Source: Octopus vulgaris
Lineage: Eukaryota
Direction: 5' to 3'
Assembly (NCBI GenBank): GCA_951406725.2
Contig: OX597833.1
Location: 9,548,001 to 9,612,000 of the forward strand
DNA length: 64,000 nt
Positions 1 to 62,536 of this stretch are shown piece after piece. The number at the start of each line of letters is the position of its first letter. The first letter of the stretch is position 1. A program made the position numbers and the translations under genes. The notes under the pieces are model-generated. The model ran no database searches and was not told the DNA's origin. It worked only from the letters and a program-made list of their open reading frames with translations.

Positions 1-1520
1 GTCTGTGGTTTACGTGTGTGTATTTGTGTGTGAATGTTTAGGTTAGGGGGATTGCTGTATAGGTTTGTTGTAGAGTTTAGCAAAGGTGATTTTATCATTA
101 TATGTTTTTATGAGTTTTAGTTTATCATGGTAGTTTTATTAAAGAATTCGTAGTAATTTGTCTATTTACGATGTTTGTTATTTTATTACATTATTTCATT
201 CATAATTTTTAAGTAATGTTCGTTTTACCACGTGAATATAATTTTTAATTCCATTTATTCCATTTCTCCATTCATAATTTTAAAAGATGTTCGTTTCCAG
301 AGCGGGAATACTTTTTATACATATGTTAGGTTCCTTGGTAACGTAATTTTGTTTGGTGTATATGTTGAGGCTTATATGTACTTATAGGTATGTGTGAATG
401 AGGTGGGTATTTGTATTTGTTATGGGTGTGTGGTTTACGTGTGTGTATTTGTGTGTGAATGTATAGGTTAAAGGGATTGCTATATAGGTATGTTATAGGG
501 TTTAGTAAAGGGAGGTTTTATCATTTATGTTTTTATGAGTTTTAATTTATCATGGTAGTTTTATTAAAGAATCCATTCATAATTTTTTTAAATAATGTTA
601 GTTTACCGCGTGAATATAATTTTTAATTCCATTTATTCTATTTCTCCATTCATAATTTTAAATGACGTTTGCTTCCATAGCGCGTATTCTTTTTATACAT
701 ATGTTAGGTTCCTATGGTAACGTAATTTTGGTTTGACGTTTTTAACGGCTTAGAATTTAATTTCACTTCATAATTTGAAACTGACTTGAAAGTATGTATA
801 TTATTTCTCCTTATGTCATATTGTTATTTTTGATATTCTGGTTACTTACGATGTATTTTATATATCGTATTATGTGTAATAATGTTGTTTTTCTTTGGAG
901 TGTTTATGTATGTGGGATTGTGTGTGAGTGTATGCGTATTTTAGTTATATAATTTATTTATCTGTATGAGTGTGGGTGTGTTAATATTGTTGTATATATC
1001 GAGTTTAGTGAGTATGTATATGTATATGGTGTGTGTTTTACGTATGTATATTTGTGTGTGAATGTGTTTATGGGTTTGCTATATAGGTTTGGGGATGTAT
1101 GTGTTTATTTATCTGTGTGGGGTTGAGTGGGTTTTTGGAGTATATATTGAGGTTTATATGTATGTATAGGTATGTGTGAGTGAGGTGGGTATTTGTATAT
1201 GTCGTGGGTGTGTGGTTTACGTGTGTGTATTTGTGTGTGAATGTTTAGGTTAGGGGGATTGCTATATAGGTATGTTATAGAGTTTAGTAAAGGAGATTTT
1301 ATCATTATATGTTTTTATGAGTTTTAGTTTATCATGGTAGTTTTATTAAAGAATTCGTAGTAATTTATGTCTATTTACGATGTCTGTTATTTTATTACAT
1401 TATTTCATTCATAATTTTTAAGTAATGTTCGTTTTACCAAGTGAATATAATTTTTAATTCCATTTATTCCATTTCTCCATTCATAATTTTAAATGATGTT
1501 CGTTTTCTAGAGCGGGAATG
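1..1520. repeat. Degenerate direct repeats of a TG/T-rich unit (copies start at about 1, 427 and 1208), upstream of an HHR; possibly PLE-associated
   Basis: The motif tgtggtttacgtgtgtgtatttgtgtgtgaatg and its downstream AT-rich block recur at about 4, 429 and 1211; 1-310 is near-identical to 1208-1520. Confidence 0.8.
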
Positions 1521-1888
1521 TGGGTTGTATGTGTGTGTGAGGGAGTATGAATAAGTATTGTGTTGAAGTATTTGGCTATTTTATTTATTTATCGTTGCCT
1601 AGACGTTTTTATGTGTATGTATAGGGATATATATATAGGTGTGTGATTTAGTGTATGTATTTAGATATGGTTATATATAATTAGTTATATGTGTATGGGT
1701 GTATATATAGTTTATTTTTGTTTTGTTTTATATTTAATTGTTGATAGGTTTATTTTAGTTTATATATTGATTATATATGGATTATATATAGGTTATATAT
1801 AGATTATATATTTATATTCATTAATACTTTAATTATTTTAAAATTATTATTTTTATATTTTAAAATATTGATATTTTAGATTGGAAGT

Positions 1889-1931
1889 CCACCTGAAGAT
1901 TGTCGATCAGGACAAGAAACAATTGTAGTGG
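1889..1931 (+). ncRNA. Minimal type I hammerhead ribozyme
   Basis: CCAC-CTGAAGA-TTGTC(gatcag)GACAA-GAAAC-AATT-GTA-GTGG: intact core, 4-bp stem I, 5-bp stem II, palindromic stem III ACAATTGT, GUA triplet. Confidence 0.85.
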
Positions 1932-2016
1932 CGATTTTTTTGACTTTTTATTAAAATTTTATGTATTGATTAAGTCTTTCCTTGTTTGTTTTGCAAAATA
2001 GTGGTTTTGTCTCTAA

Positions 2017-4197: not shown

Positions 4198-4678
<481 letters not shown>

Positions 4679-25390: not shown

Positions 25391-25860
25391 TTAGCATTGA
25401 AAAGCAGGGATGGGGGCTGGGTGCTTGGATAAGATGCGGATGTCAGGTTGATCCAAGTTATCTCCATGGTGGTCTTTAGCATGTTGGTAGAGTATAGAAG
25501 ACTGTTTTCTGTCGTCAAGTTGTCTTAAATGTTCATTTATCTGTTCCGCAATGCTCTTAGACGTCTCCTCTATGTACATCATGTTCATGTCCTTACAAGC
25601 ACCTTCTATGCATCTTATATTGTAAACTACATTTCGAGTTCTACAGTTAATACCAGGGCTAATTCTACATGCCATGCAGTTATCAATTGTGCATATGGTA
25701 TTCTTAAACGGGCATGTCCTTCATAATTGTGACCTGACGGAGTTCCTTGGCTTTTCAACAATTTTAATGTTGAGTTTGGTCTCTTTCAGAGCTTTTCTAA
25801 ATCTACGGGCTAGTTCTCCATGGGCTCTGGCCTCTACTAATATCACTCCTTGAATTTTTA
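25391..25860 (-). pseudogene. Penelope-like element GIY-YIG endonuclease remnant
   Basis: CRTRNVVYNIRC..C....YIEETSKSIAEQINEH...SILYQHAKDHH, preceded by a Cys-containing linker. Confidence 0.85.
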
Positions 25861-34844: not shown

Positions 34845-34910
34845 TGGGGTTGGGTTGGGTTGGGTTAGGGTTAGGGTTAGTTTCAGGGTCGGGATTGGGG
34901 TTGGGGTTAG
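34845..34910 (+). repeat. Degenerate telomeric (TTAGGG/TTGGG)n tract
   Basis: gggttgggttgggttagggttagggttag...ggggttggggttag. Confidence 0.75.
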
Positions 34911-36756
34911 CCTCGTTCACACATCATGCGTCCATGGAAACAAGCCTCGTTCACACATCATGCGTCCATACAAACAAGCCTCGTTCACTCGTCATGCGTC
35001 CACACAAACAAGCCTCGGTTACCCATCATGCGTCCATACAAACAAGCCTCGTTCACACATCATGCGTCCATACAAACAAGCCTCGTTCACCCGTCATGCG
35101 TCCATACAAACAAGCCTCGTTCACCCGTCATGCGTCCATACAAACAAGCCTCGTTCACCCGTCATGCGTCCATACAAACAAGCCTCGTTCACCCGTCATG
35201 CGTCCATACAAACAAGCCTCGTTCACTCGTCATGCGTCCATACAAACAAGACTCGTTCACCCGTCATGCGTCCATACAAACAAGCCTCGTTCACCCGTCA
35301 TGCGTCCATACAAACAAGCCTCGTTCACCCGTCATGCGTCCATACAAACAAGCCTCGTTCACCCGTCATGCGTCCATACAAACAAGCCTCGTTCACACGT
35401 CATGCGTCCATACAAACAAGCCTCGTTCACACGTCATGCGTCCATACAAACAAGCCTCGTTCACACATGCGTCCATACAAACAAGCCTCGTTCACATCAT
35501 GCGTCCATACAAACAAGCCTCGTTCACCCGTCATGCGTCCATACAAACATGCCTCGTTCACCCGTCATGCGTCCATACAAACAAGCCTCGTTCACCCGTC
35601 ATGCGTCCATACAAACAAGCCTCGTTCACACGTCATGCGTCCATACAAACAAGCCTCGTTAACACGTCATGCGTCCATACAAACAAGCCTCGTTTACACG
35701 TCATGCTTCCATACAAACAAGCCTCGTTCACACATCATGCGTCTATACAAACAAGCCTCGTTCACCCGTCATGCGTCTATACAAACAAGCCTCGTTCACC
35801 CGTCATGCGTCTATACAAACAAGCCTCGTTCACACATGCGTCTATACAAACAAGCCTCGTTCACCCGTCATGCGTCCATACAAACAATCCTTGTTCATCG
35901 TCATGCGTCCATACAAACAATCCTCGTTCACCCGTAATGCGTCCATACAAACAAGCCTCGTTCACACGTCATGCGTCTATACAAACGAGCCTCGTTCACA
36001 CATGCGTCCATACAAACAAGCCTCGTTAACACATCATGCGTCCATACAAACAAGCCTCGTTCACCCGTATGCATGCGTCCATACAAACAAGCCTCGTTCA
36101 CCCGTCATGCGTCCATACAAAGAAGCATCGTTCACCCGTCATGCGTCCATACAAACAAGCCTCGTTCACCCGTCATGCGTCCATTCAAACAAGCCTCGTT
36201 CACACGTCATGCGTCCATACAAACAAGCCTCGTTTACACGTCATGCGTCCATACAAACAAGCCTCGTTCACCCGTCATGCGTCTATACAAACAAGCCTCG
36301 TTCACCCGTCATGCGTCTATACAAACAAGCCTCGTTCACCCGTCATGCGTCTATACAAACAAGCCTCGTTCACACATGCGTCTATACAAACAAGCCTCGT
36401 TCACCCGTCATGCGTCCATACAAACAATCCTTGTTCATCCGTCATGCGTCCATACAAACAATCCTCGTTCACCCGTAATGCGTCCATACAAACAAGCCTC
36501 GTTCACCCGTCATGCGTCTATACAAACAAGCCTCGTTCACACATCATGCGTCAATACAAACAAGCCTCGTTCACACATCATGCGTCCATACAAACAAGCC
36601 TCGTTCACACATCATTCGTCCATACAAATATGCCTCGTTCACATCATGCGTCCATACAAACAAGCCTCGTTCACACATCATTCGTCCATACAAACAAGCT
36701 TCGTTCACACATCATGCGTTCATACACACAAGCCTCGTTCACACATGCGTCCATAC
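34911..36756 (+). repeat. 34-bp satellite (about 54 copies)
   Basis: Monomer cctcgttcacccgtcatgcgtccatacaaacaag. Confidence 0.97.
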
Positions 36757-36770
36757 ATAGATTTTCATAC

Positions 36771-41400: not shown

Positions 41401-41585
41401 GCACACATATAAACATATATATGACTGGAGTTTTCCAGTTTCCTTCCACCAAATCCAATCACAAGGCTTTGGTCGGCTCGGGGCTATAGTAGATTTTTCT
41501 GGTGTGTTTTCCTCCCTGTATTTCAGCGGCTCGGCAGAAAAGAATAAGTTAGAATAAATACTAGGCTTAGAAAAAATAAGTGCTG
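36920..41585 (+). repeat. Second mosaic of segmental-duplication blocks
   Basis: Paralogous to 2450-3990, 27315-28055, 29905-31100, 31540-32050 and 33840-34010. Confidence 0.85.
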
Positions 41586-41986
41586 CCTCGTTCACCCATC
41601 ATGCGTCCATACAAACATGCCTCGTTCACCCATCATGCGTCCATACAAACATGCCTCGTTCACACATCATGCGTCCATACAAACATGCCTCGTTCACACA
41701 TCATGCGTCCATACAAACAAGCCTCTTTCACACATCATGCGTCCATACAAACAAGCCACGTTCACACATCATGCGTCCACTCATACACACCTGGTTCACA
41801 CATAATGCGTCCATTCAAACAAGCCTCGTTCACACATCATGCGTCCATATAACCAAGCCTCGTTCACACATCATGCGTTCATACAAACAAGCCTCGTTCA
41901 CACATCATGCGTCCATACAAATATGCCTCGTTCACACATCTTGCGTCCATACAAACAAGCCTCGTTCACACATCATGCGTCCATAC
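41585..41986 (+). repeat. 34-bp satellite, second array (about 12 copies)
   Basis: Same monomer, mostly the cacatc variant. Confidence 0.95.
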
Positions 41987-42000
41987 ATAGATATTCATAC

Positions 42001-45000
42001 ATTCAGGGACATGTAATTCAGGGACATGTAATTCAGGGACAGGTAATTCAGGGGAAGGTAATTCAGGGGAAGGTAATTCAAGGCAGGTAATCCAGGCGCA
42101 GGAAATTCAGGGGCAGGTAATCCAGGTGCATGTATTTCATGGACAAGTAATTCAGGGGCATGTAATTAAGGGGCAGGAAATTCAGGGACATGTAATTCAG
42201 GGGCAGGTAATTGAGGGGCATGTAATTCAGGGGTATGTAATTCAGGGTCAGGTTATTCAGGTGTAGGTTATTCAGGGGCAGGTAATCCAGGGTTAAGTAA
42301 TTAAGGGGCATGTAATTCAGAGCAAGGTAATTCAGAGGCAGTTAATTGAGGGGCATGTAATTCAGGGGCAGGTAATTCAGGTTTATGTAATCCAGGTGCA
42401 GGTAATTCAGGGGAATGTAATTCAGGTGCATGTAATTCAGGGGCATGTAATTGAGGTGCAGGTAATTGAGGGGCATATAATTCAGGTGTATGTAATTCAG
42501 GGGCATGTAATTTAGGGGAAGTTAATCCAGGGGCAGGTAATTCAGGGGTAATTCAGGGACAGGTAATTTAAAGGAATGTCATTCATGGGCAGGTAATTCA
42601 GGGTTAGGTAATCCAGGGTATGTAATTCAGGGGCAATTAATTCAGATGAAAGGTAATTCAGGGGCAGGTAATCTAGGTGCAGGTAATTTAGGGATAGATA
42701 ATTCAGAGGCATGTCATTCAGGTGCATGTAATTAAGAGGCATGTAATTGAGGGCCATGTAATTCAGGTGTTTGCAATTCAGGGGCAGGTAATTCAGATGC
42801 ATGTAATTTAGGGGCAGGTACTTCAGGGGTATGTAATTCAGGGGCAGGTAATTCAGGTGTATGTTATTCAGGGGCAGGTAATTCAGGGGCATGTAATTAA
42901 AGGGCAGGTAGTTCAGGGGCAGGTAATTCAGGGGCATGTAATTCAGGGGCATGTAATTCAGGTGTATGTGATTCATTGGCAGGTAATTCAGGGGCATGTA
43001 ATTCAGGGGCAGGTAATTCACGAGCATGTAATTCAGGTGTATGTAATTCAGGGGCAGGTAATTCAGGTGCAGGTTATTCAGGGACTCAGGGGCAGATAAT
43101 TCAGGGGCATGTAATTCAGGGGCATGTAATTGAGGGGAAGGTAATCCAGGTGCAGGTGATTTAGAGGAATGTCATTCATTGGCAGGTAATTCAGGGGCAT
43201 GTAATTCAGGGGCATGTAATTCAGGTAATTCAGGGGCAGGTAATTTATAGGAATGTCATTCATGGGCAGGTAATTCAGGGGCAGGTAATTCAGGGTTAGG
43301 TAATTCAGGGGCAGGTAATTCAGGGGCATGTCATTCACGGGCAGGTAATTTAGGGATAGATAATTCAGAGGCAGGTCATTCAGGTGCATGTAATTAAGAG
43401 GGGCAGGTAATTCAGGTGTTTGTAATTCAGGGGCAGGTAATTCAGGGTCAGGTTATTTAGGGTTAGGTTATTCAGGGACAGGTAATTCAGGGGCAGGTAA
43501 TTCAGATGTATGTTATTCAGGGGCAGGTAATTCAGGGGCAGGTAATTCAGGGGCAGGTAATTCAGGGGCATGTAATTGAGGTGCAGGTATTTGAGGGGCA
43601 TGTAATTCAGGTGTATGTAATTCAGGGGCATGTAATTCATGGGTGGGTAATTCAGAGGATTGTCATTCAGGGGCAGGTAATTCAGGGTTAGGAAATCCAG
43701 GGGCATGTAATTCAGGGGTAATTCAGGGACAGGTAATTTAGAGGAATGTCATTCATGGGCAGGTTATTCAGGGGCATGTAATTCAGGGGCAGGTAATTTA
43801 GGGATAGATAATTCAGAGGCATGTCATTCAGGGGCAGGTCATTCAGGGGCAGGTAATTCAGGGGAAGGTAATTGAGGGTCAGGTTAATTCAGGTGTAGTT
43901 AATTCAGGGGCAGGTAATCCAGGGTTAAGTAATTAAGGGGTATGTAATTCAGAGCAAGGTAATTCAGTGGCAGGTAATTGAGGGGCATGTAATTCAGGGG
44001 CATGTAATTGAGGTGCAGGTAATTCAGGGGCATGTAATTCAGGTGCAGGTAATTCAGGGGCATGTAATTCAGGGGCATGTAATTCAGGTGCATGTAATTC
44101 AGGGGTAGGTAATTAAGGGGCAGGTAATTCAGGGGCATGTAATTCATGGGTGGGTAATTCAGAGGAATGTAATTCAGGGGCATGTAATTCAGGGGTAATT
44201 CAGGGAAGGTAATTTAGAGGATTGTCATTCAGGGGCAGGTAATTCAGGGTTAGGTAATCCAGGGGAAGGTAATCCAGGGGCAGGTAATTCAGGGACAGGT
44301 AATTTAGAGGAATGTCATTCATGGGCAGGTAATTCAGGGGTATGTAATTCAGGGGCATGTAATTCAGGGGCATGTAATTCAGGGGCATGTAATTCAGGGG
44401 CATGTAATTCAGGGCAGGTAATTCAGATGCATGTAATTTAGGGGCATGTAATTCAGGGGCATGTAATTCAGGGGCAGGTAATTCAGGTGTATGTAATTCA
44501 GGTGCATGTAATTCATGGGCAGGTAATTCAGGGACATGTCATTCAGGGAAGGTAATTCAGGGGCATGTAATTCGGGCATGTAATTCATGGGCGGGTAATT
44601 GAGGGGAAGGTAATCAAGGTGCAGGTGATTTAGAGTAATGTCATTCATTGGCAGGTAATTCAGGGGCAGGTAATTCAGAGGAATGTAATTCAGGGGCATG
44701 TAATTCAGGGGAAGGTAATTAAGGGACAGGTAATTTATAGGAATGTCATTCATGGGCAGGTAATTCAGGGGCAGGTAATTCAGGGGCATGTAATTCAGGG
44801 GTATGTAATTCATGGGCAGGTAATTGAGGGGCATGTCATTCAGGGGCATGTAATTTAGGGGCAGGTAATTCACGGGCAGGTAATTCACGGGCAGGTAATT
44901 CACGGGCATGTAATTCAGGTGTATGTAATTTATGGGCAGCTAATTCAGGGGTATGTAATTCAGGGGAATGTCATTCAGGGGCAGGTAATTCGGGCATGTA

Positions 45001-48000
45001 ATTCATGTGCGGGTAATTGAGGGGAAGGTAATCCAGGTGCAGGTGATTTAGAGTAATGTCATTCATTGGCAGGTAATTCAGGGGCTGGTAATACAGAGCA
45101 ATGTAAGGTAATCCAGGGGGAGGTAATTTATAGGAATGTCATTCATGGGCAGGTAATTCAGGGGCATGTAATTGAGGTGCAGGTAATTGAGGGGCTTGTA
45201 ATCCAGGTGTATGTAATTCAGGGGCATGTAATTCGTGGGTGGGTAATTCAGAGGAATGTAATTCAGGGGAAGGTCATTCAGGGGCAGGTAATTCAGGCGT
45301 AATTCAGGGACAGGTAATTTAGAGGAATGTCATTCATGGGCAGGTAATTCAGGGGCATATAATTCAGGGGCAGGTCATCGAGGTGCATGTAATTTCAGGG
45401 GCATGTAATTCACGGGCAGGTAATTCAGGGGCTGGTGATTTAGGGATAGATAATTCAGAGGCATGTCATTCAGGGGCAGGTAATTCAGGTGCATGTAATT
45501 AAGAGACAGGTAATTCAGGGCCATGTAATTCAGGTGCTTGTAATTCAGGGGCACGTAATTCAGATGCATGTAATTTAGGGGCAGGTACTTCAGGGGAAGG
45601 TAATTTAGGGGCATTTAATTCATGGGCAGGTAATTGAGGGGCATGTAATTTAGGGCCAGGTAGTTCACGGGCAGGTAATTGAGGGGCATGTCATTCAGGG
45701 GCAGGTAATTCAGTGGCATGTAATTCACGGGCAGGTAATTCACGGGCATGTAATTCAAGTGTATGTAATTCAGGGGCAGGTAATTCAGGTGCAGGTTATT
45801 CAGGGACTCAGGGGTAGATACTTCAGGGGCATGTAATTCTGGGGCAGGTAATTCAGGGGCATGTAATTCAGGGGCATGTAATTCAGGGGCAGGTAATTCA
45901 GGGGCATGTAATTCGTGGGTGGGTAATTCAGAGGAATGTAATTCAGGGGCAGGTAATTCAGGGGTAATTCAGGGACAGGTAACTCAAAGGAATGTCATTC
46001 ATCTGCAGGTAATTTAGGGGCAGGTAATCTAGGGGCATGTAATTCAGATGAAAGGTAATTCAGGGCATGTCATTCACGGGCTGGTAATTTAGGGATAGAT
46101 AATTCAGGGGCATGTAATTCAGGGGCAGGTAATTCAGGGGCATGTAATTCAGGGGCAGGTAGTTCAGGGGCAGGTAATTCATGGCCATTTAATTCATGGG
46201 CAGGTAATTCATGGGCAGGTAATTCATGGGCAGGTAATTGAGGGGCAGGTAATTCAGGGGCATGTAATTTAGGGGCAGGTAATTCAGGTGTATGTAATTC
46301 AGGTGCAGGTTATTCAGGGACTCAGGGGTAGATAATTCAGGGGCATGTAATTCAGGGGCATGTAATTCAGGGGCATGTAATTCAGTTGCATGTAATTGAG
46401 GGGCATGTAATTCAGGTGTATGTTATTCAGGGGCAGGTAATTCAGGTATAGGTTATTCAGGGGCAGGTAATCCAGGGGTAACTAATTAAGGGGCAGGTCA
46501 TTCAGGGGCATGTAATTTAGGGGCAGGTAATTCACGGGCAGGTAATTCACGGGCATGTAATTCAGGTGTATGTAATTTATGGGAAGGTAATTCAGGGGTA
46601 TGTAATTCAGGGGCATGTCATTCAGGGGCAGGTAAATCGGGCATGTAATTCATGTGCGGGTAATTGAGGGGAAGGTAATCCAGGTGCAGGTGATTTAGAG
46701 TAATGTCATTCATTGGCAGGTAATTCAGGGGCAGGTAATACAGAGCAATGTAATTTAGGGGAAGGTAATCCAGGGGGAGGTAATTTATAGGAATGTCATT
46801 CATGGACAGGTAATTCAGGGTCTTGTAATTCAGGGGCATGTAATTGAGGTGCAGGTAATTGAGGGGCTCGTAATCCAGGTGTATGTAATTCAGGGGCATG
46901 TAATTCGTGGGTGGGTAATTCAGAGGAATGTAATTCGGGGGAAGGTAATCCAGGCGCAGGTAATTCAGGCGTAATTCAGGGACAGGTAATTTAGAGGAAT
47001 ATCATTCATGGGCAGGTAATCCAGGGGCATGTAATTCAGGGGCAGGTAATCGAGGTGCATGTAATTCAGGGGCATGTCATTCACGGGCAGGTAATTCAGG
47101 GGCTGGTAATTTAGGGATAGATAATTCAGAGGCATGAAATTCAGGGGCAGGTCATTCAGGTGCATGTAATTATGAGGCAGTTAATTCAGGTGCTTGTAAT
47201 TCAGGGGCACGTAATTCAAATGCATGTAATTTAGGGGCAGGTACTTCAGGGGAAGGTATTTTAGGGGCATTTAATTCATGGGCAGGTAATTGAGGGGCAT
47301 GTAATTTAGGGCCAGGTAGTTCACGGGCAGTTAATTGAGGGGCATGTCATTCAGGGGCAGGTAATTCACGGGCAGGTAATTCACGGGCAGGTAATTCACG
47401 GGCATGTAAATCAGGTGTATGTAATTCAGGGGCAGGTAATTCACGTGCAGGTTATTCAGGGACTCAGGGGTAGATACTTGAGGGGCATGTAATTCTGGGG
47501 CAGGTAATTCAGGGGCATTTAATTCAGGTGCATGTAATTCATGGGCAGGTAATTCAGGGGCATGTAATTCAGGGGCAGGTAATTCAGGGGCAGGTAATTC
47601 AGGGTTAGGTAATTCAGCGGCATGTAATTGAGGTGCAGGTAATTGAGGGGCATGTAATTCAGGTGTCTGTAATTCAGGTGTATGTAATTCAGGGGTAGGT
47701 AATTCAGGGGCATGTAATTCAGGGGCATGTAATTCGTAGGTGGGTAATTCAGTAATTCAGGGGCATGTAATTCAGGGGAAGGTAATCCAGGGGCAGGTAA
47801 TTCAGGGGTAATTCAGGGACAGGTACCTTAGAGGAATGTCATTCATCTGCAGGTAATTTAGGGGCAGGTAATCCAGGGGCATGTAATTCAGGGGCATGTC
47901 ATTCACGGGCAGGTAATTCAGGGGCTGGTAATTTAGGGATAGATAATTCAGAGGCATGTCATTCAGGGTCATGTAATTTAGGGGCAGGTACTTCAGGGGC

Positions 48001-48650
48001 ATTTAATTCATGGGCAGGTTATTCAGGGACTCAGGGGTAGATAATTCAGGGGAGTGTAATTCAGGTGTATGTAATTCAGGGGCATGTAAATCAGTTGCAT
48101 GTAATTCAGGGGCATGTAATTCAGGTGCATGTAATTAAGGGGTATGCAATTCAGGGGCATGTCATTCAGGGGCATGTCATTCAGCGAAGGTAATTCAGGG
48201 GCAGGTAATTCAGGGCTAGGTAATCCAGGGGCAGGTAATTCAGGGGCATGTAATTCAGGTGTATGTAATTCAGGGGCATGTCATTCACGGGTGGGTAATT
48301 TAGGGATAGGTAATTCAGGGGCACATCATTCAGAGTCAGATCATTCATGTGCATGTAATTAAGAGTCATGTAATTTAGGGGCAGGTAATTCAGGTGCATG
48401 TAATTCAGGGGTAATTCAGGGACAGGTAATTTAGAGGAATGTCATTCATGGGCAGGTAATTCAGGGGCTTGTAATTCTGGGTTAGGTAATCCAGGGGCAT
48501 GTAATTCAGGAGCTTGTAATTCAGGGGCAGGTAATCTAGGTGCAGGTAATTCAGGGGTATGTCAATCACGGGCAGGTAATTTAGGGATAGATAATTCAGG
48601 GGCAGGTCATTTAGGTGCATGTAATTGAGGGGCAGGTAATTGAAGGCCAT
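42001..48650 (+). repeat. 15-bp G-rich satellite (about 440 copies) running into the gap
   Basis: Consensus taattcaggggca(g/t)g; variant landmarks recur at a period of about 1.65 kb. Confidence 0.97.
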
Positions 48651-51529: not shown

Positions 51530-52208
51530 CAGTGGCGGACCGGCCAGGTTGCCAGCTTGCCCGATGACAAGTGGGCCCCTGCGCCATTAGAATCCATATT
51601 TGGGGGCCTATCTTTGTATCTGTGGAGGCGCAAAGGCCTAGTGGTTAGGGCAGCGGACTCGCGGTCGTAGGATCGCGGTTTCGATTCCCAGACCGGGCGT
51701 TGTGAGTGTTTATTGAGCGAAAACACCTAAAAGCTCCACGAGGCTCCGGCAGGGGATGGTGGTGATCTCTGCTATACTCTTTCGCCACAACTTTCTCTCA
51801 CTCTTTCTTCTGTTGGCCTGCTCGCTTAGCCAGCGGGGTGGCGTCATTCGAAGGCTAAAACAATGCGAACGCATTGTGACCAGCGATGTGTAACTACATC
51901 TGATGGACTGGTCGGTCACGTGATCTTAGTATCTAAGGGGCCCATGCCCTTAGTTTGAGAATTATTTATTCACCCCTGGAAGTATGCATTTTTGCAGCCT
52001 GAGTGTGTTTGTAGACAGTGGAAAAGAATACTTAAGAAAATAAATAAATGATAGCATTGTAGTTGCGGGTGGGCCTCCTTGTAGTTGCGGGTGGGCCCCT
52101 TGTAGTTGCGGGTGGGCCTCCTTGTAGTTGCGGGTGGGCCCCTTGTAGTTGCGGGTGGACCCCCTTAGTCTCCTGGCAAGCAATACTTTTAGACCCAGTT
52201 CGCCACTG
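51530..52208. mobile_element. hAT-like MITE with nested SINE and internal 20/21-bp tandem repeat
   Basis: TIRs CAGTGGCGGACCGG and CAGTGGCGAACTGG; 8-bp flanks tgtgtctg and tgtgtgtg; ttgtagttgcgggtggg five times at 52057-52160. Confidence 0.75.
51624..51922 (+). mobile_element. tRNA-derived SINE family C
   Basis: ggcctagtggttaggg A-box and ggtttcgattccc B-box in a tRNA-like head; a diverged copy lies at about 59954-60180. Confidence 0.8.
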
Positions 52209-52567
52209 TGTGTGTGTGTGTGTGCGTGCACGTGTGTATGTCTGTCTGTCTGTCTGTCTGTATGTGTGTATGTATGTATGCATGTATGTGTGTATGTATG
52301 TATGCATGTATGTGTGTATATATGTATGTTTCAACGTTTGTGTGTTTGCGTTTGCATGCATGCTATGCATGTATGTATGTATGGCTATGTATATGTGTGT
52401 GTATGTTTGTATTCATCAATGTTTGTATGTTATGTAAATAAATACGTCTTATATATTGAATATATACATGCATATATACATTGTAATGAAGCTAAATACA
52501 TTACATTACATTCATACACACATACATATATACATACAACACACACATACATACATACATACATACA

Positions 52568-52603
<36 letters not shown>

Positions 52604-52763
52604 TATATGCTAGATCTCTAACAAGTCTTTCTTCCTGATACCTTGGTATCTTCTAAGCTGAAGTGAAGACAGCATGTTCTTTGTCTATCTCCTTACCTTC
52701 TTGGAGGTTTTAGGTAAAATTATACAAATGTGTCCATCTGTTTTAATTTAATTCTATGTATTT

Positions 52764-52851
52764 ATGCAACTGAGGATTGCTCTACATTTAAATTGATGTA
52801 ATGGTTGCATTGTTCGATTAAATTGAGTCGCCTGAAACGATCGTACTGCAT
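52764..52851 (+). ncRNA. Type I hammerhead ribozyme with degenerate extended stem II
   Basis: ATGCAa-CTGAGGA-(57 nt)-GAAAC-GATC-GTA-cTGCAT; palindromic stem III ACGATCGT. Confidence 0.6.
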
Positions 52852-53259
52852 TACCTCTGGATATCCTGTTACTTATTTTGATTAGCACAGTTATTCGCCA
52901 CACACCCAAACTCTACGCATACACACACGAACACACACACACACACACACACTACAAACAAAACACACACACCATACATATATATACACGCACACACACA
53001 CACATACTTCAAACTAGCAGTACCTACTACTGACCTGGGGTAGAGACAAAAAGAAACACTCCCAATTTCTTCTTCCTTGACCTTAAACAATACTAAGCCC
53101 TACAACACGCACAGATTAACAGCCACAACCACACACACATACACACACGCGCACACGCAGACCTTCGCGCACGCACATATCCACACTTACACACACATAC
53201 CTTCTCTTGCACTCTCCTGTCTTTGAAAGAACTTTTCTTCACCCATTTCCTTCCGGTCA

Positions 53260-53480
53260 TTCAAAATGTGACCGCGTGTGTACCATTGGCGATTTTTTTT
53301 CCTCTGTCTTCCCTTCTCTGGATCTTTCCTTCTCCTATGTTTCCGACGAAGAGCTCCGCTCGAAACGTTAAACCCTCCTTCTTCCCTTCTTTCCTGAGCG
53401 TCCAATAATACTATATTTGTTCCACGTCCTCGCGTTGTTGTGTTTTCTCTTTGTGTTTTCGTGTTTGGATTAACTATATA
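53260..53480 (+). mobile_element. PLE-terminus-like repeat with variant HHR core; second copy at 56353-56540
   Basis: CCGACGA-A-GAGC(tcc)GCTC-GAAAC followed by a T-rich tail ending in (TA)n. Confidence 0.55.
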
Positions 53481-53707
53481 TATATGAGGGGGTCAAAGGT
53501 CCTTCCTGAGGCTCCATCTTCCTCGGCAGGAGACACTGTCCGTCACAAGATTACTAATTTTTACCAGCTGACCAGCTGCGTGGAATGGAGCAACGTGAAA
53601 TGTTTTGTTTTGCTTAAGAGGATGACGCATCACCCTGTCCAAGAAACGAAATCACAATCTTGCGATCATGAATGCAACAACCAAAACCATGCGCCTCCAC
53701 ACACACA

Positions 53708-53788
<81 letters not shown>

Positions 53789-53889
53789 TTATTTTGCTTC
53801 CTGCAATGTAGTGCGTCTCTTTTCGTTTCTCATGAGACGGCAAATTTTAGACGGAGACAAATTGCTTGAACATCTGACCCCTTCGTATA

Positions 53890-54471
53890 TTCTTTTCTAC
53901 TCTAGGCACAAGGGTCGAAATTTTGGGGCAGGGAGCCACTCGATTACATCAACCCTAGTACGCAACTGGTACTAATTTATTGATCCCGAAAGGATGAAAG
54001 GCAAAGTCAACCTCGGCGGAATTTGAACTCAGAACGTAACGCCAGACGAAATACCTATTTCTTTACTACCCACAAGGGGCTAAACATAGAGGGGACAAAC
54101 AAGGACAGACAAACGGATTAAGTCGATTATATCGACCTCAGTGCGTAACTGGTACTTAATTTATCGACCCCGAAAGGATGAAAGGCAAAGTTGACCTCAG
54201 TGGAATTTGAACTCAGAACGTAGCGGCAGACGAAATACCTATTTCTTTATTGCCCACAAAGGGCTAAGCACAGAGGGGACAAACAAGGACAGACAAAGGG
54301 GTTAAGTCGATTATATCGACTCCAGTGTGTAACTGGTACTTAATTTATCGACCTCGAAAGGATGAAAGGCAAAGTCGACCTCGGTGGAATTTGAACTCAG
54401 AACGTAACGGCAGACGAAATACGGCTACGCATTTCGCCCGGCGTGCTAACGTTTCTGCCAGCTCACTGCCT
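53890..54471 (-). mobile_element. Head-to-tail trimer of SINE family B (period about 184 bp)
   Basis: The junction gacgaaatacctatttcttta recurs at about 54046 and 54230; only the rightmost unit has the 5' head. Confidence 0.85.
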
Positions 54472-54909
54472 TGAAATATTCGAATATTGACAGAATGTAA
54501 AGTAACGGGGACCGACCTAAATAAACATTTCTACTAAACGCACAAGGCCTGAAATTTTGTAGGGAAAGGACTAGTCGATTTCATTGAGCCAAGTGTAACA
54601 CTGGTACTTGAAATTTATAGACTTCGAAAGGACGAAAGGCAATGTCGACCTCCGCGGAATTTGAACTCAGAACGTAGCGGCAGATGAATTACTGTTAAGC
54701 ATTTCGCCCGGCGTGCTCAAGATTCTGGCGGCTCGACGCCTTAGGGACCAACATAAATGATAATATAAGCAATATGACTAAACTATATTATCCTAGCTCG
54801 CTTCTTTGTAGTTGGTTGACACAGACACACTGATATATATATATATATATATCAGCAAATGGCGGTGCCCCAGCATGGCCACAGCTCGTGAGCTGAAACT
54901 AGATAAAAT

Positions 54910-54940
<31 letters not shown>

Positions 54941-55256
54941 TGTGTATATATATTTATATATATATGTATACAGACCTATATATACTCATACACATCGAAG
55001 AAAGTTTCTTGGAATCAAGTAATTAAATGTTCAGAATGATACAATCACACACATCCACGCACACATACTCATATATACATACATAAATATATATATACAT
55101 ATATACATACATGCATACAAATATATATATGTATGTGTGTCTATATCTAACATAAATAACGTAATATATATACATGTATACATATATATCTATATCTATC
55201 TTTATTTATATGTATATGCATATATATATATATATATATATATGTGCATATATATA

Positions 55257-55309
<53 letters not shown>

Positions 55310-55428
55310 TTTGTTTAAAGCAGCAGAAAATTCAACAAATTCTGCTGCTTTAAATAAAGCATATTACTCTACCACTGGTATTTGAGTACTCTTTTTTCCA
55401 CCTTGTTTCACATTTATGTGTTTACTTT

Positions 55429-55466
<38 letters not shown>

Positions 55467-56049
55467 TGGAATGTGTATATGGATATTGATAAATATTCAA
55501 GTATATATGTATACGCACAGATATATAAACATGCAAACATACAAACGCATATTTGCAGATGGACATAGATAAAAAAAATGGAAACCAAAAAAATAAACAA
55601 AAATAAATAAAAACAGAAAATAAGAAAACATGAAAGAAGAAAAGGAAGAAATAAATTAAATAAACGAAAGTGAATTCTAACGAAGGAACGATTTTAGATG
55701 GATATGTAGTATTTAATTTAGCGAATCATTGATAAAACATGGCGTGAGTTTCGTATTAAGAAAATGATCATTATCTGAAGAGAGAGAATTACTGAAGGAA
55801 AAGGGAACCAATCTGTCTGTCGGTCAGTCTGTCTGCCTGTCTTTGTCTGTCTGTTCGTCTCTCTCTCTCTCTTGCTCTCCCTCTCTCTATATGTATGTCT
55901 CTGTATCAGTCTCTCATGTATCTGTAGCCACACACGCGTACTATAATTAAAGTAGTTAGATATGTTAAAAGATATAAACATGATAAATTACTCCATATGT
56001 ATACATAGTCGTCATGAATATCCTTTATACATACATACACCCCCCCCCA

Positions 56050-56080
<31 letters not shown>

Positions 56081-56115
56081 ACATACACACACACAGATAT
56101 ATATATATATATATA

Positions 56116-56250
56116 TAATTTATTATATAGAAGGAGCTTCTACAGGACTAGAACTGTTTCATTCAAGAGAAATCATCAGGAAGCTCCTGATGGTTTCTCT
56201 TGAATGAAACAGTTCTAGTCCTGTAGAAGCTCCTTCTATATAATAAATTA
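56116..56250. repeat. 135-bp fold-back inverted repeat centred on an HHR stem I
   Basis: Arms of about 65 bp with one mismatch around the central aagct. Confidence 0.92.
56133..56187 (-). ncRNA. Type I hammerhead ribozyme
   Basis: Minus strand GGAGCTTC-CTGATGA-tTTC(tctt)GAAt-GAAACAG(ttctagtc)CTGTA-GAAGCTCC: 8-bp stem I, 4-bp stem III, GUA triplet. Confidence 0.8.
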
Positions 56251-56314
56251 ATTTTACTCTGCTATGTATTGAGTACCTTATTTACTGTGGTTAACCCCGA
56301 ATCAACCCGGGACC

Positions 56315-56358
<44 letters not shown>

Positions 56359-56696
56359 ACCACGTGTGTACCGTTGGCGATTTTTTTCCTCTGTCTTCCC
56401 TTCTCTAGATCTTTCCTTCTCCTATGTTTCCGACGAAGAGCTCCGCTCGAAACGTCCTGAGCGTCCAATAATACTATATTTGTTCCACGTCCTCGCGTTG
56501 TTGTGTTTTTTTTTGTTTTCTTGTTTGGATTAACTATATATATATATATACATATATGAATAAAAAAAATGGAGTTAACGCAGGTGTAATCAAATATTTT
56601 TACTTTCGACACATGTTTACTTGTGAGATTTTTGCTGCCCTGGCAACTATTTATTTTTTTTTCCGTGTTAATTGTTAACAAGGTAAAAATACACTC

Positions 56697-56785
<89 letters not shown>

Positions 56786-56950
56786 AATGAGATAGGGGTT
56801 GAAAATTCAACCCACCATGGGATAACATATATCCAATATACTGCTAGATAGGTACCCAACAAGACTAATACATAGATGTTAAAAATTGCCAAACAATCAG
56901 TTCATCTATTGTATTATATGGGTAAAGGTAATAATATTACCGTAAATTAA

Positions 56951-57558
56951 TACTACAAAATTAGAAAATGGAGAAACATACTTAAATCAATAAAACATCA
57001 ACTATCAGATGATACCCAATCAATACTTTATTACACCATTACATATCAGTAAAGGCATTATACAAAATATACAGTAAATGTAAATAGACAAAGAGATATA
57101 AGTATAAAATTTCAAATATAATATGTAATTAAATCAAATCTGACAGCTGTTTCGGCAGCGAGGGCAGTCATACTTCATTTAACCTACATTTTTATATTTT
57201 TATATTTTTATATTTATATGTATATGGAAAAATAATTTTTTTCACAATTATAACAAATTTAATTCTCTGAAGAGGCCGTGGGGCATCCTTGTTAATGCCT
57301 CATTTATACCTGCCTTTATGGCTTATAGGTTAAATGAGGTATGACTGCCCTCGCTGCCGAAACAGCTGTCAGATTTGATTTAATTACATATTATATTTGA
57401 AATTTTATACTTATATCTCTTTGTCTATTTACATTTACTGTATATTTTGTATAATGCCTTTACTGATATGTAATGGTGTAATAAAGTATTGATTGGGTAT
57501 CATCTGATAGTTGATGTTTTATTGATTTAAGTATGTTTCTCCATTTTCTAATTTTGTA

Positions 57559-57561
<3 letters not shown>
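56951..57561. repeat. 236-bp inverted repeat (56951-57186 and 57326-57561) between (TA)n tracts
   Basis: The arms are reverse complements with one mismatch noticed by eye. Confidence 0.93.
57259..57378 (+). ncRNA. Type I hammerhead ribozyme with long stem II
   Basis: TCT-CTGAAGA-GGC..GGGCA..ATGCCTCATTTA..TAAATGAGGTAT..TGCCC..GCC-GAAAC-AGCT-GTC-AGA; palindromic stem III ACAGCTGT, GUC triplet. Confidence 0.85.
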
Positions 57562-57600
<39 letters not shown>

Positions 57601-57604
<4 letters not shown>

Positions 57605-57834
57605 TGTTATATTTCGGAATGGCCATATTGCCAGTTTAGCCAATAAAAACACACGCACTATATATTTGGTCTTATTTTGCTTCAGTGATATTTATTTTTT
57701 ACGTTAATCTTAATCTTATTTCGGCCAGAGTTCTTTCGTCACACTCCTGTGACCGCATCAGTGGTCCTTTGTTTTCTTCTTTCCTATTTTATTGGCTAAA
57801 CTGGCAATATGACCATTCCGAAATATAACAATAT
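57601..57834. repeat. 48-bp inverted repeat enclosing a variant HHR
   Basis: 57601-57648 and 57787-57834, one mismatch. Confidence 0.88.
57723..57767 (-). ncRNA. Variant or degenerate hammerhead ribozyme
   Basis: GGACCA-CTGATGC-G-GTCACA(ggag)TGTGAC-GAAA-GAACTC-TGGCC; 6-bp stem II, core A9 changed to C. Confidence 0.55.
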
Positions 57835-57941
57835 CTGTTTCAACACACGACTTCACATAAAAAATCTTGCACAACAAATATTTAAACGTATATATATATA
57901 GATATACATATATATACATACATACACACGCACACACACAG

Positions 57942-57973
<32 letters not shown>

Positions 57974-57978
57974 ATATA

Positions 57979-58057
<79 letters not shown>

Positions 58058-58206
58058 GTTCAGTTGAATAAATCTATCAGTAATGTATCTATAATGAATA
58101 CCGGAAACAACTGTAAGCCAAATTTACTTCAATAAAGGAAAAGCATGTAATGGCTAATATTTTAAACTAGTTTAAATATATATATAAAATTATTATTATT
58201 ATTATT

Positions 58207-58576
58207 GAGTGAGAGAGCAGTGCATGCCATCAAAGTGACACTGGGGTAAAATATACGAAGCCCAATATACCCATCATGACTACCCGTCTGATAAGGGTAC
58301 ACCAGGCACATGCATCACAACCATATGTGCGCGACATGGTGATCTCATATCAAGATAAACAGCACATGACCTTGCAGGTGGGGCTCAGTTAGAATTTTCT
58401 TCAGGTTGAGTAGCCCATCCCGCTCAAAAGGTCCCTGAATAAGGGTTGTTTAAGGATGTTGAAAGAACCACCCATGTTTCCAGAGGTGAATTATTCAAAC
58501 CCCAAAGAATCCCTCTCAACACATGCCTATGATGCTCCCCCACTACTTCTGCTCGTGATCAGAGATGCACATATCG

Positions 58577-58578
<2 letters not shown>
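58207..58578 (-). mobile_element. Unclassified interspersed element flanked by (TAA)n on both sides
   Basis: Complex-sequence island of about 370 bp between (ATT)n runs; no ORF similarity recognised. Confidence 0.45.
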
Positions 58579-58644
<66 letters not shown>

Positions 58645-58899
58645 TTATGTTTGATTTTTGGTTTACATTTGTACGAGACCTCAAGAGACAACAAGTTGGA
58701 AGTTCATGTTGGTGTTATGCCTAGGGTGCCATATATTTGGTTTGGTAAAAAAAATTGTTCTAGAGAATGTTTAAGAAACCATAAGAGAATTGTGTGTTTG
58801 TTTCTTCTTCTTCTTCTTCATCATCATCTTCTTCTTCTTCTTCTTCTTCTTCTTCTTCTTCTTCTTCTTCTTCTTCTTCTTCTTCTTCTTCTTCTTCTT

Positions 58900-58974
<75 letters not shown>

Positions 58975-58987
58975 ATTATTGATAACG

Positions 58988-59192
58988 TGGCGAACTGGCG
59001 GAATAGTTAGCACGCTGGGCAAAATGCCAAGCGGCATATCGTCCATCTTTGCTTTCTGAGTTCAAATTCCGCCGAGGTCGATTTTGCCTTTCATCCTTTC
59101 GGGGTCGATAAACTAAGTACCAGTTGCACATTGGGTTCGATGTAATCGACTCACCCCTCCCTCAAAACTGCTGCCCTTGTGGCAAAATTTGA
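58988..59192 (+). mobile_element. SINE family B
   Basis: Matches 13175-13394. Confidence 0.8.
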
Positions 59193-59199
59193 AATATTA

Positions 59200-59521
59200 C
59201 TATTATTATTAATCAGTAGTTTTATTTTTATAACGGGCTTTTACTTCACTATGGAGCGCAGCTCTGTGTGCCTTGGGTATGTGCTGTGGTTTGCTGTGAT
59301 GCTCTTACGGTTACTGTATTGAAAGTGTTCTGCGCAGGATGTGTGCAGTGCCCAGTAGTGCTATTTTCTGTATGTTATATATATTTGTAAGTCCTGGTGT
59401 TTTTGTTATGTATTTGTCCGAATATTTTTTTATCATACCTAATGCACCTACTATGATTGGAATTGTTTCTGGTTTTAGATTCCACATTTGAGGTCTTTGT
59501 AGTTACCTCTATTTCCAGGTC
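59200..59521 (-). mobile_element. R4/Dong-clade (RLE) non-LTR retrotransposon 3' end
   Basis: DLEIEV..MWNLKPETIPIIVGALGMIKK...IQKIALLGTAHILRRTLSIQ*, then a short UTR and TAA tail. Confidence 0.85.
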
Positions 59522-59590
59522 TTTCTTCTTCTTCTTCTTCTTCTTCTTCTTCTTCTTCTTCTTCTTCTTCTTCTTCTTCTTCTAATGATG

Positions 59591-59654
<64 letters not shown>

Positions 59655-60330
59655 TCTTTTCTACTAAAGGTACAAGGCCTCAAATTTAGGGGGAAGGGAC
59701 TAGTCGATTACGTTGACCCCAGTGTTCCACTGGTACTTAATTTATCGACTGAGAAAGGATGAAAGGCAAAGTCGACCTCGGTAGAATACCAACTCAAAAG
59801 ATAAGTACGGACGAAATGCCTCGAAGCATTTTGCCCGGCATGGTAACGATCCTGCCAGCTCCCTTTCTGCTATAGAATTACTTGAATTAAGACTAAAAAT
59901 AATTCAATCGTAATGTTTTATGGTATTTTTGTAGCTCTATTCCTTCTCTACGTGGAGGTGCATGGCTCAGAGCTTAGGGTGTCGAACCCATGATCGTAAG
60001 ATTGTGGTTTCGATTCTTTGACCGGGCGATGCGTTGTATTTTTGAGCAAAGCACTACGTTTCACGTTGCTTCTGTCTTCTCAGCTACCGAAAATGAGTAA
60101 TCCCGTCCAAGGAGGGGAATGTGTATGCCACAGAATCTGGGAAACTCGCCTTATGAGCCAATGGCTAAGGAAGTACGTTTGAAGTACGTTCTTCTTATTT
60201 GTGTTCTAATCTACCGGATCCCCATAAGCATTCGAAGTTTTAAAAATCCTAAAAACTTTCGGACATGAACAAACCGACACCGGTGTCAAACGGTGGTTGG
60301 GGCATACACAACATAAACACACACACACAC

Positions 60331-60424
<94 letters not shown>

Positions 60425-60453
60425 GGGAGTTGAACGAAGATGTTAACAAAATT

Positions 60454-60534
60454 CCTTTACTCTCGACATATGTTTCGACATTTATTCCAAAGGAATAAAC
60501 GGTGCAAGATGCAATCTTCTCATCAGGAAAGAAG
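60454..60534 (-). ncRNA. Type I hammerhead ribozyme (stem II deletion variant)
   Basis: CTTTC-CTGATGA-GA..TC-GAAAC-ATAT-GTC-GAGAG on the minus strand. Confidence 0.65.
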
Positions 60535-60552
60535 TCTTGTTGAGAGAGGCTC

Positions 60553-60645
60553 CCTTTCTTTCCTGATGAGAAGATTGCATCTTGCACCGTTTATTCCTTT
60601 GGAATGAAACTATACTGTCTTCGAAACATATGTCGAGAGTAAAGG
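60553..60645 (+). ncRNA. Type I hammerhead ribozyme with branched stem II
   Basis: CTTTC-CTGATGA-GAAGA..TGCA(tct)TGCA..ATTCC(ttt)GGAAT..TCTTC-GAAAC-ATAT-GTC-GAGAG; palindromic stem III ACATATGT. Confidence 0.87.
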
Positions 60646-60842
60646 AATTTTGCTAACATCTTCGTTCAGCTCCATTTATTTATTTATTCATATATAACAC
60701 ACAAATTTCTGCACATGAACCCGGAGTTTCTACCCTTGGACAGGTTGCTTCAACCGTGTTTCTGACGTGAATTTGCTACCCTGGTATCGGTTCATCGAAT
60801 TTTCCATATTGACGGTAAACATAGGATAATTCATTCACCTAT

Positions 60843-60897
<55 letters not shown>

Positions 60898-61182
60898 TAA
60901 ATAAAATAAAACATATGCATATATATAAACATATATGTACGTACCTACCTCTACATGTACATATACACGCATATATGAGTACAGGACACCAAAAAGACGT
61001 CGAACACAATGAGAAACGAAAACATAGACACAAACCAAAGGAACTGGACATTTTTTTAAACAACAAAAAAATAGAGTACAGGACAATTAACACAAAGAAA
61101 AAACCCCTTCTTCAGTCGCTATGGTTTCATCTACTCTACGTTTCGAAGGTGAAAGCGAGACGTATCTTCGACTAGAAACTTT

Positions 61183-61272
<90 letters not shown>

Positions 61273-61439
61273 CGGGCTTACACGCAGTTTCCGTCTACCA
61301 AATTCACCCACGAATTATTGGTCGCTTCTGGGTTGTAGTAAAAGACACACGATCAAAGTGCCGCACAGTGGGACCGAACTCTAAACCACGTGGTTGCAAA
61401 GCGAATCTTATAATTACCAGTAATTGCACTGAACATTAA

Positions 61440-61860
61440 TACCTAAGTGAGCTTAACTTTGTGATGCTGTCATTTTTAAGGACGAAATTATTGGAGGCAC
61501 GTTTTAACACCTTTCTTTGTTTATCTAATGTGTACTTGTTATGTTGGAGTACAGCCAACCCGTCGTTTCTATATAAGCCTACATCTCTCATATGATCCTT
61601 ATAAATATTCAGAATATATAGGTCAACAAGTTCCACATATCTCAGCGCTGTCGAAGGATCCCAAACTGACAACTGACGAAACATTAAATATTGTATTACT
61701 TCATAATCCTAGCCGCGTTTTTATTGAAAAACGAAAATTCTTGGTATGCAATAATTATATGTCAATGTTAAATTCTAGAGTACAGGTTGGCAATGATTCC
61801 GAATTAGCAAAAAGCAACCTGACAGTATAGAAATTCGCGAATGTGTGCTAATGATTATTA
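61440..61860 (-). pseudogene. Penelope-like reverse transcriptase remnant
   Basis: VSLGSFDSAEIC/(frameshift)ELVDLYIL...VGLYRNDGL resembles the GS(F/Y)DGAEvCELVGLY...GLYRDDGL motifs of some PLE RTs. Confidence 0.75.
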
Positions 61861-62134
61861 CTGATATTTTAAAAGTAATTAATTATATATATAAGTATTT
61901 AATTATCGCTGACGTCACACATCATAATGCGCTTGATTAACGTAACTGAATATTAGAGAGGGCTTCTAATGTTGCGCTAAATCAAATGCGGATTATAAGT
62001 TCAAGAGATAACGTGTAAACCGAACCATCGAAATGTCTAGGGTCGTAATTCCAAACTAACTGGGTCTCATCATCTTCGGATGAAATATTTAGATTGATGA
62101 GGGAAGCAAAAAGTAAATGCATCTGCACATTCAT

Positions 62135-62154
62135 GCATATATATATATATATAT

Positions 62155-62242
<88 letters not shown>

Positions 62243-62273
62243 ATATATGTAAACATATATGTAAATATGTATG

Positions 62274-62304
<31 letters not shown>

Positions 62305-62404
62305 GTATATATATATTTATGTATATGTATATATATATGTATATATATGTATGCTTGCATATACTATCAACAATAATATTAATGTTTGTATATATATAAG
62401 TGTA

Positions 62405-62435
<31 letters not shown>

Positions 62436-62536
62436 GTGTGTATATATGTATGTGTGTGTATATATGTATGTATATATATATATACATGTGCATGTATATA
62501 TGTATAAGTGTATGTGTGTATATATATATACATATA

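Follow-up and report, generated by a model that had tools for sequence, protein, structure and literature searches.

This 64-kb window of the Octopus vulgaris genome (GenBank assembly GCA_951406725.2, contig OX597833.1, positions 9,548,001 to 9,612,000; "the window" is the whole stretch) raises the question of what kind of element has left a cluster of hammerhead ribozyme motifs within about 8 kb of DNA rich in (TA)n tracts. Penelope-like elements of metazoans carry minimal type I hammerheads in their pseudo-long terminal repeats (pseudo-LTRs; Cervera and De la Pena 2014, PMC4209133). What defines a retrozyme is a head-to-tail array together with circular RNA (PMC7229834, bioRxiv 2026.07.22.740005, PMC6765202). 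The cluster is very probably a pile of short, 5'-truncated and partly inverted ends of six protein-coding Penelope-like families that lie in (TA)n tracts. Pseudo-LTR hammerheads, inverted arms, tails and (TA)n targeting are already published and the system is ordinary; what is new is a sharp 5' boundary in two families, E2 and E3, whose short copies end at a predicted transcription start and so likely preserve a trace of the elements' mode of copying.

Coding parents of the hammerhead families

Every hammerhead motif in the window belongs to a dispersed family. The seven families (E1-E7) were followed through the source genome assembly (G000; 2.8 Gb, 227 contigs), and loci fetched outside the window for family comparison carry L-numbers. 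Exact patterns matched 5064 times for E2 (a 30-mer), at 4445 arms for E3, 537 times for E6 and 34 times for one E4 variant (a 29-mer), each control giving 0; the 163-2336 candidates returned by DNA searches are not copy numbers.

In other genomic copies all seven families continue into a reading frame for reverse transcriptase (RT), GIY-YIG endonuclease or both, and this attachment bears out the Penelope-like link that a preliminary description of the sequence had drawn for its hammerheads. One open reading frame (ORF) that encodes RT and C-terminal GIY-YIG is unbroken in E3, and both domains occur in broken copies of E2, E4, E5 and E6. E3 shows a same-strand pair of pseudo-LTRs, 4.8-7.2 kb apart, in 14 of the 20 fetched regions. 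Its ORF is unbroken in two of the 20 (L364, L376) and spans 713 amino acids from the first methionine in L364. Among 8000 candidates scored, 1118 homologues of the E3 protein reach E<=1e-10; the intact protein has no relevant Pfam domain match and a PDB sequence search gave 0 matches. At L358 (G000:C1:68813000-68822500), two E3 units stand in direct tandem, 5193 bp apart, with a common frameshift.

For E2, 8 of 20 loci have an ORF after the tail, with the motifs DKG, FLPKIHK and YIDD; L326 contains a GIY-YIG frame and a second pseudo-LTR, and the pseudo-LTR forms partial tandems at L252/L325 and L259/L326. RT and GIY-YIG frames are present in L151, L152 and L156 for E4 and in L158 and L159 for E6. 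E5 has such frames in L160-L162 and in L164, where the frame runs for about 1000 codons with one stop and matches Pfam RVT_1 (E 0.0009) and GIY-YIG (E 0.002), both below the gathering score. The nuclease alone was seen for E1, as GIY-YIG remnants about 1.6 kb upstream in L275 and L276 (2 of 20 loci), and RT alone for E7, whose tail enters an RT frame in one locus of 20 (L397; E 1e-76 to the E3 protein). Asparagine-rich inserts lie inside the ORFs of E4 (L152:5778-7157), E6 (L158:8080-8775) and E5 (L164:2743-3921); such inserts have been described in rotifer Penelope elements (PMC3846280).

The protein motifs of E3 and E4 agree with those described for the Hydra clade, Penelope-like elements with a C-terminal endonuclease (Craig et al. 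2021, PMC8557442): both have DKT and a CxCx5C linker, and E3 also has CxxC and CxH in the nuclease. Sequence similarity places E6 and E7 as relatives of these two Hydra-like families, and E1 is probably another. The motifs of E2 are Poseidon-like and those of E5 Neptune/Nematis-like.

Copy ends and a possible copying route

A (TA)4 or longer run is found no more than 20 nt from the 3' end in 27 of 29 E2 copies (one copy without the end was left out) and in 59 of 60 E3 arms, against a background of 0.07-0.10, which confirms the (TA)n association reported earlier. The hammerhead-bearing ends likely sit there because AT-rich repeats are the cutting site of the GIY-YIG nuclease, and new (TA)n left behind by one insertion would serve as a target for another. 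All seven families have two alternative 3' ends, one short and one tailed, which fall about 186 and 355 nt past the motif in E4 and about 42 and 200 nt past it in E6. In vitro work on another element (Frangieh et al. 2024, PMC11167929) suggests that the two classes would correspond to two start points of the enzyme on its RNA. An intron in the E4 pseudo-LTR that ends at the short 3' end finds no supporting joint in the contigs of four runs, and contigs cannot show its absence. Contigs presumed to derive from RNA include E4 and E3 sequence, but they reveal neither ends, strand nor level and carry no weight here.

Among the insertions in the window, four consist of two arms joined head to head, only one of which has the tail, and an inverted, 5'-truncated copy with an optional tail at one end is found in these families. 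In E3 pairs, subfamily variants are mostly present in both arms, the junctions vary and stutter, and the tail may be on either arm. The shared variants and varying junctions indicate that the inverted arm is rebuilt at each insertion. Both cut strands would prime cDNA, and the cDNA ends would anneal via a few matching bases. If a single cDNA folded back, its second arm could not exceed the first in length; an origin from two cDNAs, each primed separately, is therefore more likely.

Unbiased sampling of 5' ends covered E2, E3, E4 and E6, and two of these four have a fixed boundary, or wall. In E3, 38 of the first 100 listed arms (a hand count) break at one base and 62 run on into the parent; the pattern cannot match arms cut further inside. 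The wall base is the first base of hammerhead helix I, and TATAAA stands 29 nt upstream of it in 22 of 24 parent copies. In E2, 29 of 30 copies begin at or after position -2 of the initiator-like TCATTC. Moreover, 9 of 20 E2 ORF-start loci read pseudo-LTR, ORF start and pseudo-LTR again, and five of the eight measurable junctions from ORF to pseudo-LTR restart at exactly one TCATTC position (one of the five being the query locus). The wall in both families is likely the transcription start, a position predicted from these promoter-type motifs. A general 5' wall for all families was rejected, as E4 and E6 have none.

An alternative to the start-site step alone is that the walls are junction hot spots, at the self-complementary AGCT in E3 and at TA/TG-like bases in E2, with plain 5' truncation throughout. 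It would account for the 14 of the 38 E3 wall arms that form seven perfect palindromes centred on AGCT, for E2 ends that trail off across +1 to +55 and for the missing wall in E4 and E6. Palindromes of this kind would also be produced by two cDNAs that both stop at the wall base. However, E3 monomers and other, non-palindromic junctions break at the same base (one of the samples behind this being G-biased), and the E3 TATA box lies at the textbook distance. The single E2 copy in 30 that reaches past -2 and the single restart position shared by five of eight E2 jump junctions likewise speak for a start site, and we consider the hot-spot account rather unlikely.

The E3 pair at 56120-56318 was the best candidate for a non-autonomous palindromic element, an interpretation ruled out by the unbiased pattern and the intact autonomous parents. 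Its source was a sample in which 60 of 60 arms lacked upstream sequence because both search patterns demanded a G where the parent has a T. An extra G at -1 of E3 arms is clear in a few unforced cases (L336, L327 and rows of the unbiased E3 list). As a copy of the RNA cap this G is suggestive only: in most instances the opposite arm could have served as its template, and the G is absent from E2 junctions. At L327:4889-5646, an E3 copy with a tail is followed by ORF pieces with internal deletions, after which the sequence resumes at the 5' wall; this single insertion thus documents several template jumps.

Full-length copies could originate by template jumps, read-through tandems or circles, the last as in a published model for Penelope-like elements (PMC4209133), and most arms are compatible with all three. 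For the short E2 and E3 copies that end at the wall, priming would take place at the tail, close to the 5' end of a linear RNA left uncut, and synthesis would run off at its start. Having reached the RNA start, the RT would either integrate or jump template; to make a longer copy, such a jump, a read-through RNA or a circular template would be required. Our data suggest reverse transcription primed near the RNA 5' end and then a template jump. Tentatively, and with the balance somewhat against it, the pseudo-LTR may be regenerated by a strong-stop-and-jump like that of LTR retroelements, in which tail-primed reverse transcription on capped, uncut mRNA runs to the start and jumps. The hammerhead cut in the downstream pseudo-LTR would then give the short terminal redundancy for the jump, 45 nt in E3. 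Wall-ended E2 and E3 copies, palindromes of two such cDNAs and ORF-to-start junctions would be failed intermediates. The literature searched, whose coverage left most subscription papers and Repbase outside, contained no direct statement of this idea and no direct report of cephalopod hammerheads. The walls make pseudo-LTR regeneration testable, with near-5' priming and a jump set against read-through and circular-RNA models. E3 offers a test bed as a young family with intact elements, in which about a third of arms stop at one TATA-adjacent base.

The preliminary description had instead proposed several non-autonomous, retrozyme-like families. In such a system short hammerhead units would be transcribed independently, self-cleave, circularise and be re-inserted by Penelope enzymes. 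In its favour, E2 is very abundant and mainly about 210-260 nt long, with a nearby same-strand second copy at 3 of 25 loci (L064, L077, L080) and an initiator-like motif at its 5' wall from which short copies might be transcribed; animal retrozymes have also been argued to derive from pseudo-LTRs (bioRxiv 2026.07.22.740005). Yet each of the seven families continues into its own RT and/or GIY-YIG frame, which comes close to the outcome, every copy a fragment of an already annotated autonomous Penelope, that the preliminary description had itself named as speaking against its proposal. Sampling of the families yielded monomers and inverted pairs, with no more than 2-3 copies scattered at a locus, and the 64-kb window holds no head-to-tail array of hammerhead units. 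Monomers and head-to-head pairs cannot release a unit-length RNA by two cuts. E3 short copies have no upstream TATA box, and a circular template, lacking a free 5' end, would leave no wall. Retrozyme-like spread is thus very unlikely, and the cluster is a dense, ordinary graveyard of Penelope-like ends, not a retrozyme system. E2 copies are overwhelmingly short, and therefore many may be spread in trans.

Several observations weigh against this reading of the cluster as ends of coding Penelope-like elements, or against parts of it. The E1 remnants share 31-40% identity with the endonuclease, in the two loci named. Pfam matches stay below the gathering score for two of six proteins, with nothing relevant for the other four, and an unbroken ORF is absent for E1, E2, E4, E5, E6 and E7 in the loci fetched. 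E2 is mostly short, with its 5064 exact core matches standing against 290 first-look ORF-start candidates. Three E3 palindromes selected by BLAST (L112, L114, L118) differ between arms at subfamily sites, and the 5' ends of E4 and E6 (30 copies each) scatter from about -1450 to +59. The E2 and E3 start sites are predicted from motifs, and hammerhead cleavage is likewise a prediction.

Hammerheads and insertions in the window

A descriptor scan of the whole window, with local dinucleotide shuffles as controls, returned three type I hammerheads under strict settings (1889+, 57264+, 60558+), where 60 shuffles averaged 0.1 and never gave more than 1. Five motifs were found with a relaxed core, against 0.33 in shuffles. 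Without the demand for helix II pairing there were six (1893+, 52770+, 53343+, 60563+, 60526-, 56179-), against 0.225 and a maximum of 2 in 40 shuffles. The CUGANGA/GAAA core, the NUH triplet and three helices are all present at 1889, 57264 and 60558. Rfam gave no hammerhead at the gathering score in the entire window, nor any among the 127 matches up to E=10 in 52000-62500, and fold stability is unusual in one of eight folds (57262-57376, z -5.0). Of the six or more hammerhead folds listed in the preliminary description, a type I hammerhead-like core stands at every one, in numbers above the shuffles, but several copies are damaged and Rfam is silent.

A core and a pairing helix I, spelled in different letters, are kept in seven unrelated families, always at the pseudo-LTR. 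Within families copies are 90-100% alike, and helix changes resemble single decay events, covariation having been judged without formal scoring. Chance matches in AT-rich DNA, with which the Rfam result and the seven unremarkable z-scores would agree, are refuted by the far lower shuffle counts (3 against 0.1, 6 against 0.225) and by this fixed position, and their probability is negligible. The motifs in the window are real, and their cleavage activity is predicted.

The core or the base of helix II is non-canonical in E1, E2, E3 and E5. U.U replaces the G10.1-C11.1 pair at 52764 (E1) and 56133 (E3); the replacement is family-wide in both, intact E3 elements (L364) included. In E2 position 4 of the hammerhead is frequently C. 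Core position 9 is C throughout the E5 family, the core CUGAUGC of 57723- occurring in at least 20 of 27 copies, and its loop III is non-palindromic. The U.U of E3 and E1 and the C9 of E5 are natural hammerhead variants worth assaying. Helix II is an 85-nt hairpin in E4 (57274-57358), the stable fold noted above, with inserts at the matching place of 57 nt in E1 and 53 nt in E6. Helix III of E3 has 4 bp and could fold as a monomer.

In four of the window copies the motif is damaged when compared with the rest of the family. At 52764 (E1), a G-to-A change breaks the first helix I pair, ATGCAG being the commonest family form, and at 56430 (E2) a deletion of about 23 nt has removed the 3' strand of helix I. 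Helix II of 60454- (E6) is shortened to 2 bp. The + arm at 56180 (E3), missing from the first list of motifs, has A9 changed to G. A further hammerhead-like stretch, degenerate and recognised by eye, adjoins (TA)n at 61105-61180 on the minus strand, about 260 bp from an RT remnant; it failed the scans.

Table 1 Penelope-derived features of the window, in window coordinates.
Feature	Position	Strand	Details
E1, 5'-truncated pseudo-LTR end with short 3' end	52609..52884	+	hammerhead 52764-52851, first helix I pair broken
E2, 3' untranslated region (UTR) and pseudo-LTR of a Poseidon-like element	53011..53475	+	ends in (TA)n; initiator-like TCATTC 53257-53262; hammerhead variant 53339-53373, C at position 4
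E3, head-to-head pair, first ~135 nt of a Hydra-like element	56120..56318	both	centre 56179-56187; hammerhead 56133-56187 with core intact on - and A9G on +; tail of ~65 nt confined to + arm; flanked by (TA)n left and right
E2, second copy, within (TA)n right of E3	56357..56535	+	hammerhead 56430 without helix I 3' strand
E4, inverted tailed arm (56781-57186) and direct short-ended arm	56781..57559	+	hammerhead 57264-57373, 85-nt helix II hairpin
E5, direct arm and inverted tailed arm	57604..57888	-	non-canonical hammerhead 57725-57764 in direct arm
E6, head-to-head pair	60416..60845	both	hammerhead 60558-60639 intact on tailed + arm; helix II damaged on short - arm
E7, not part of the cluster; 3' UTR, long and AT-rich, with pseudo-LTR, then (TA)n	1..2016	+	hammerhead 1889-1931
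Decayed GIY-YIG region, relative of the E5 family	25421..25858	-	53% identity, E 2e-44
Decayed RT fragment with Hydra-type-like motifs	61439..61708	-	motif columns align; missed by tblastn

The motifs at 56133, 57259, 57723 and 60454/60553 each correspond to one head-to-head insertion (Table 1). The copies at 60.4-60.6 kb had been described as the sole related pair; 53344 and 56430 are also of one family, E2. A GIY-YIG remnant expected near 25391 is present. The RT remnant placed at 61440 has aligned motifs in its favour, but tblastn finds nothing there.

A Penelope coding remnant at 16208-16495 (-) is 41% identical to the N-terminal region of E5 (E 1e-14 or better), and weak RT-motif matches lie at 30205-30450, 39596-39652 and 27779-27838 (+). 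An interspersed repeat of about 170-185 bp, which we take to be an octopus short interspersed nuclear element, occupies 53890-54745, 58983-59161 and 59650-59864, with three copies in tandem at a 184-bp period. Satellite arrays with units of 87, 34 and 15 bp cover 6086-12585, 34909-36757, 41585-41987 and 42001-48641, and a short (GGGTTA)n run (34847-34910) adjoins the 34-bp array.

Comparison with known systems

The window shares type I hammerheads, short non-coding pieces and kinship to pseudo-LTRs with animal non-LTR retrozymes (PMC7229834). Unlike these, its motifs lie in dispersed ends of ORF-bearing elements and not in ORF-less head-to-tail arrays that give circular RNAs. The repeat annotation of one octopus species (PMC13282606) lists 31 recently active Penelope-like families; the word ribozyme is absent from the available part of its main text.

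The resemblance to the hammerheads of metazoan Penelope-like elements (PMC4209133) is close and includes the type I core, a short palindromic helix III and an extra base after A9. Common to both are also a great variety within one genome, a majority of single motifs left by truncated elements, and pairs on opposite strands at distances of 100-700 bp. The octopus families differ from that description in the U.U that replaces G10.1-C11.1 in E1 and E3, the frequent C4 of E2 and the C9 of E5, and in the 53-85 nt helix II inserts (E1, E4, E6) and the 4-bp helix III of E3.

As in the Hydra clade (PMC8557442), hammerheads are present and insertion is into (TA)n, in addition to the protein motifs of E3 and E4 given above. 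The inverted copy, the one-sided tail and the (TA)n bias are published in the same source and in PMC3846280. In contrast, RWR/RWL is found here in place of RWK, tails measure 60-200 nt and not 30-40, and E3 units, which measure about 5-5.5 kb and have a 3' UTR that is long and AT-rich, exceed the clade's typical size of less than 3 kb, for which reason we use the label Hydra-like.

The inverted pseudo-LTR copy and one-sided tail of Penelope insertions were described by Arkhipova et al. (2013, PMC3846280), and Frangieh et al. (PMC11167929) explain the tail by two RT start sites, with uncut RNA as the main template. Our families agree with these accounts in the head-to-head inverted arm, the one-sided tail, the predicted pair of RT start sites close to where the ORF begins, the predicted use of uncut RNA as template and the pseudo-LTR's TATA box and initiator motifs. 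The template assumed by Frangieh et al. is a multi-copy mRNA. Neither account, as far as covered here, reports short genomic copies that end at the start site or junctions that restart there, as seen at the predicted start sites of the octopus elements.

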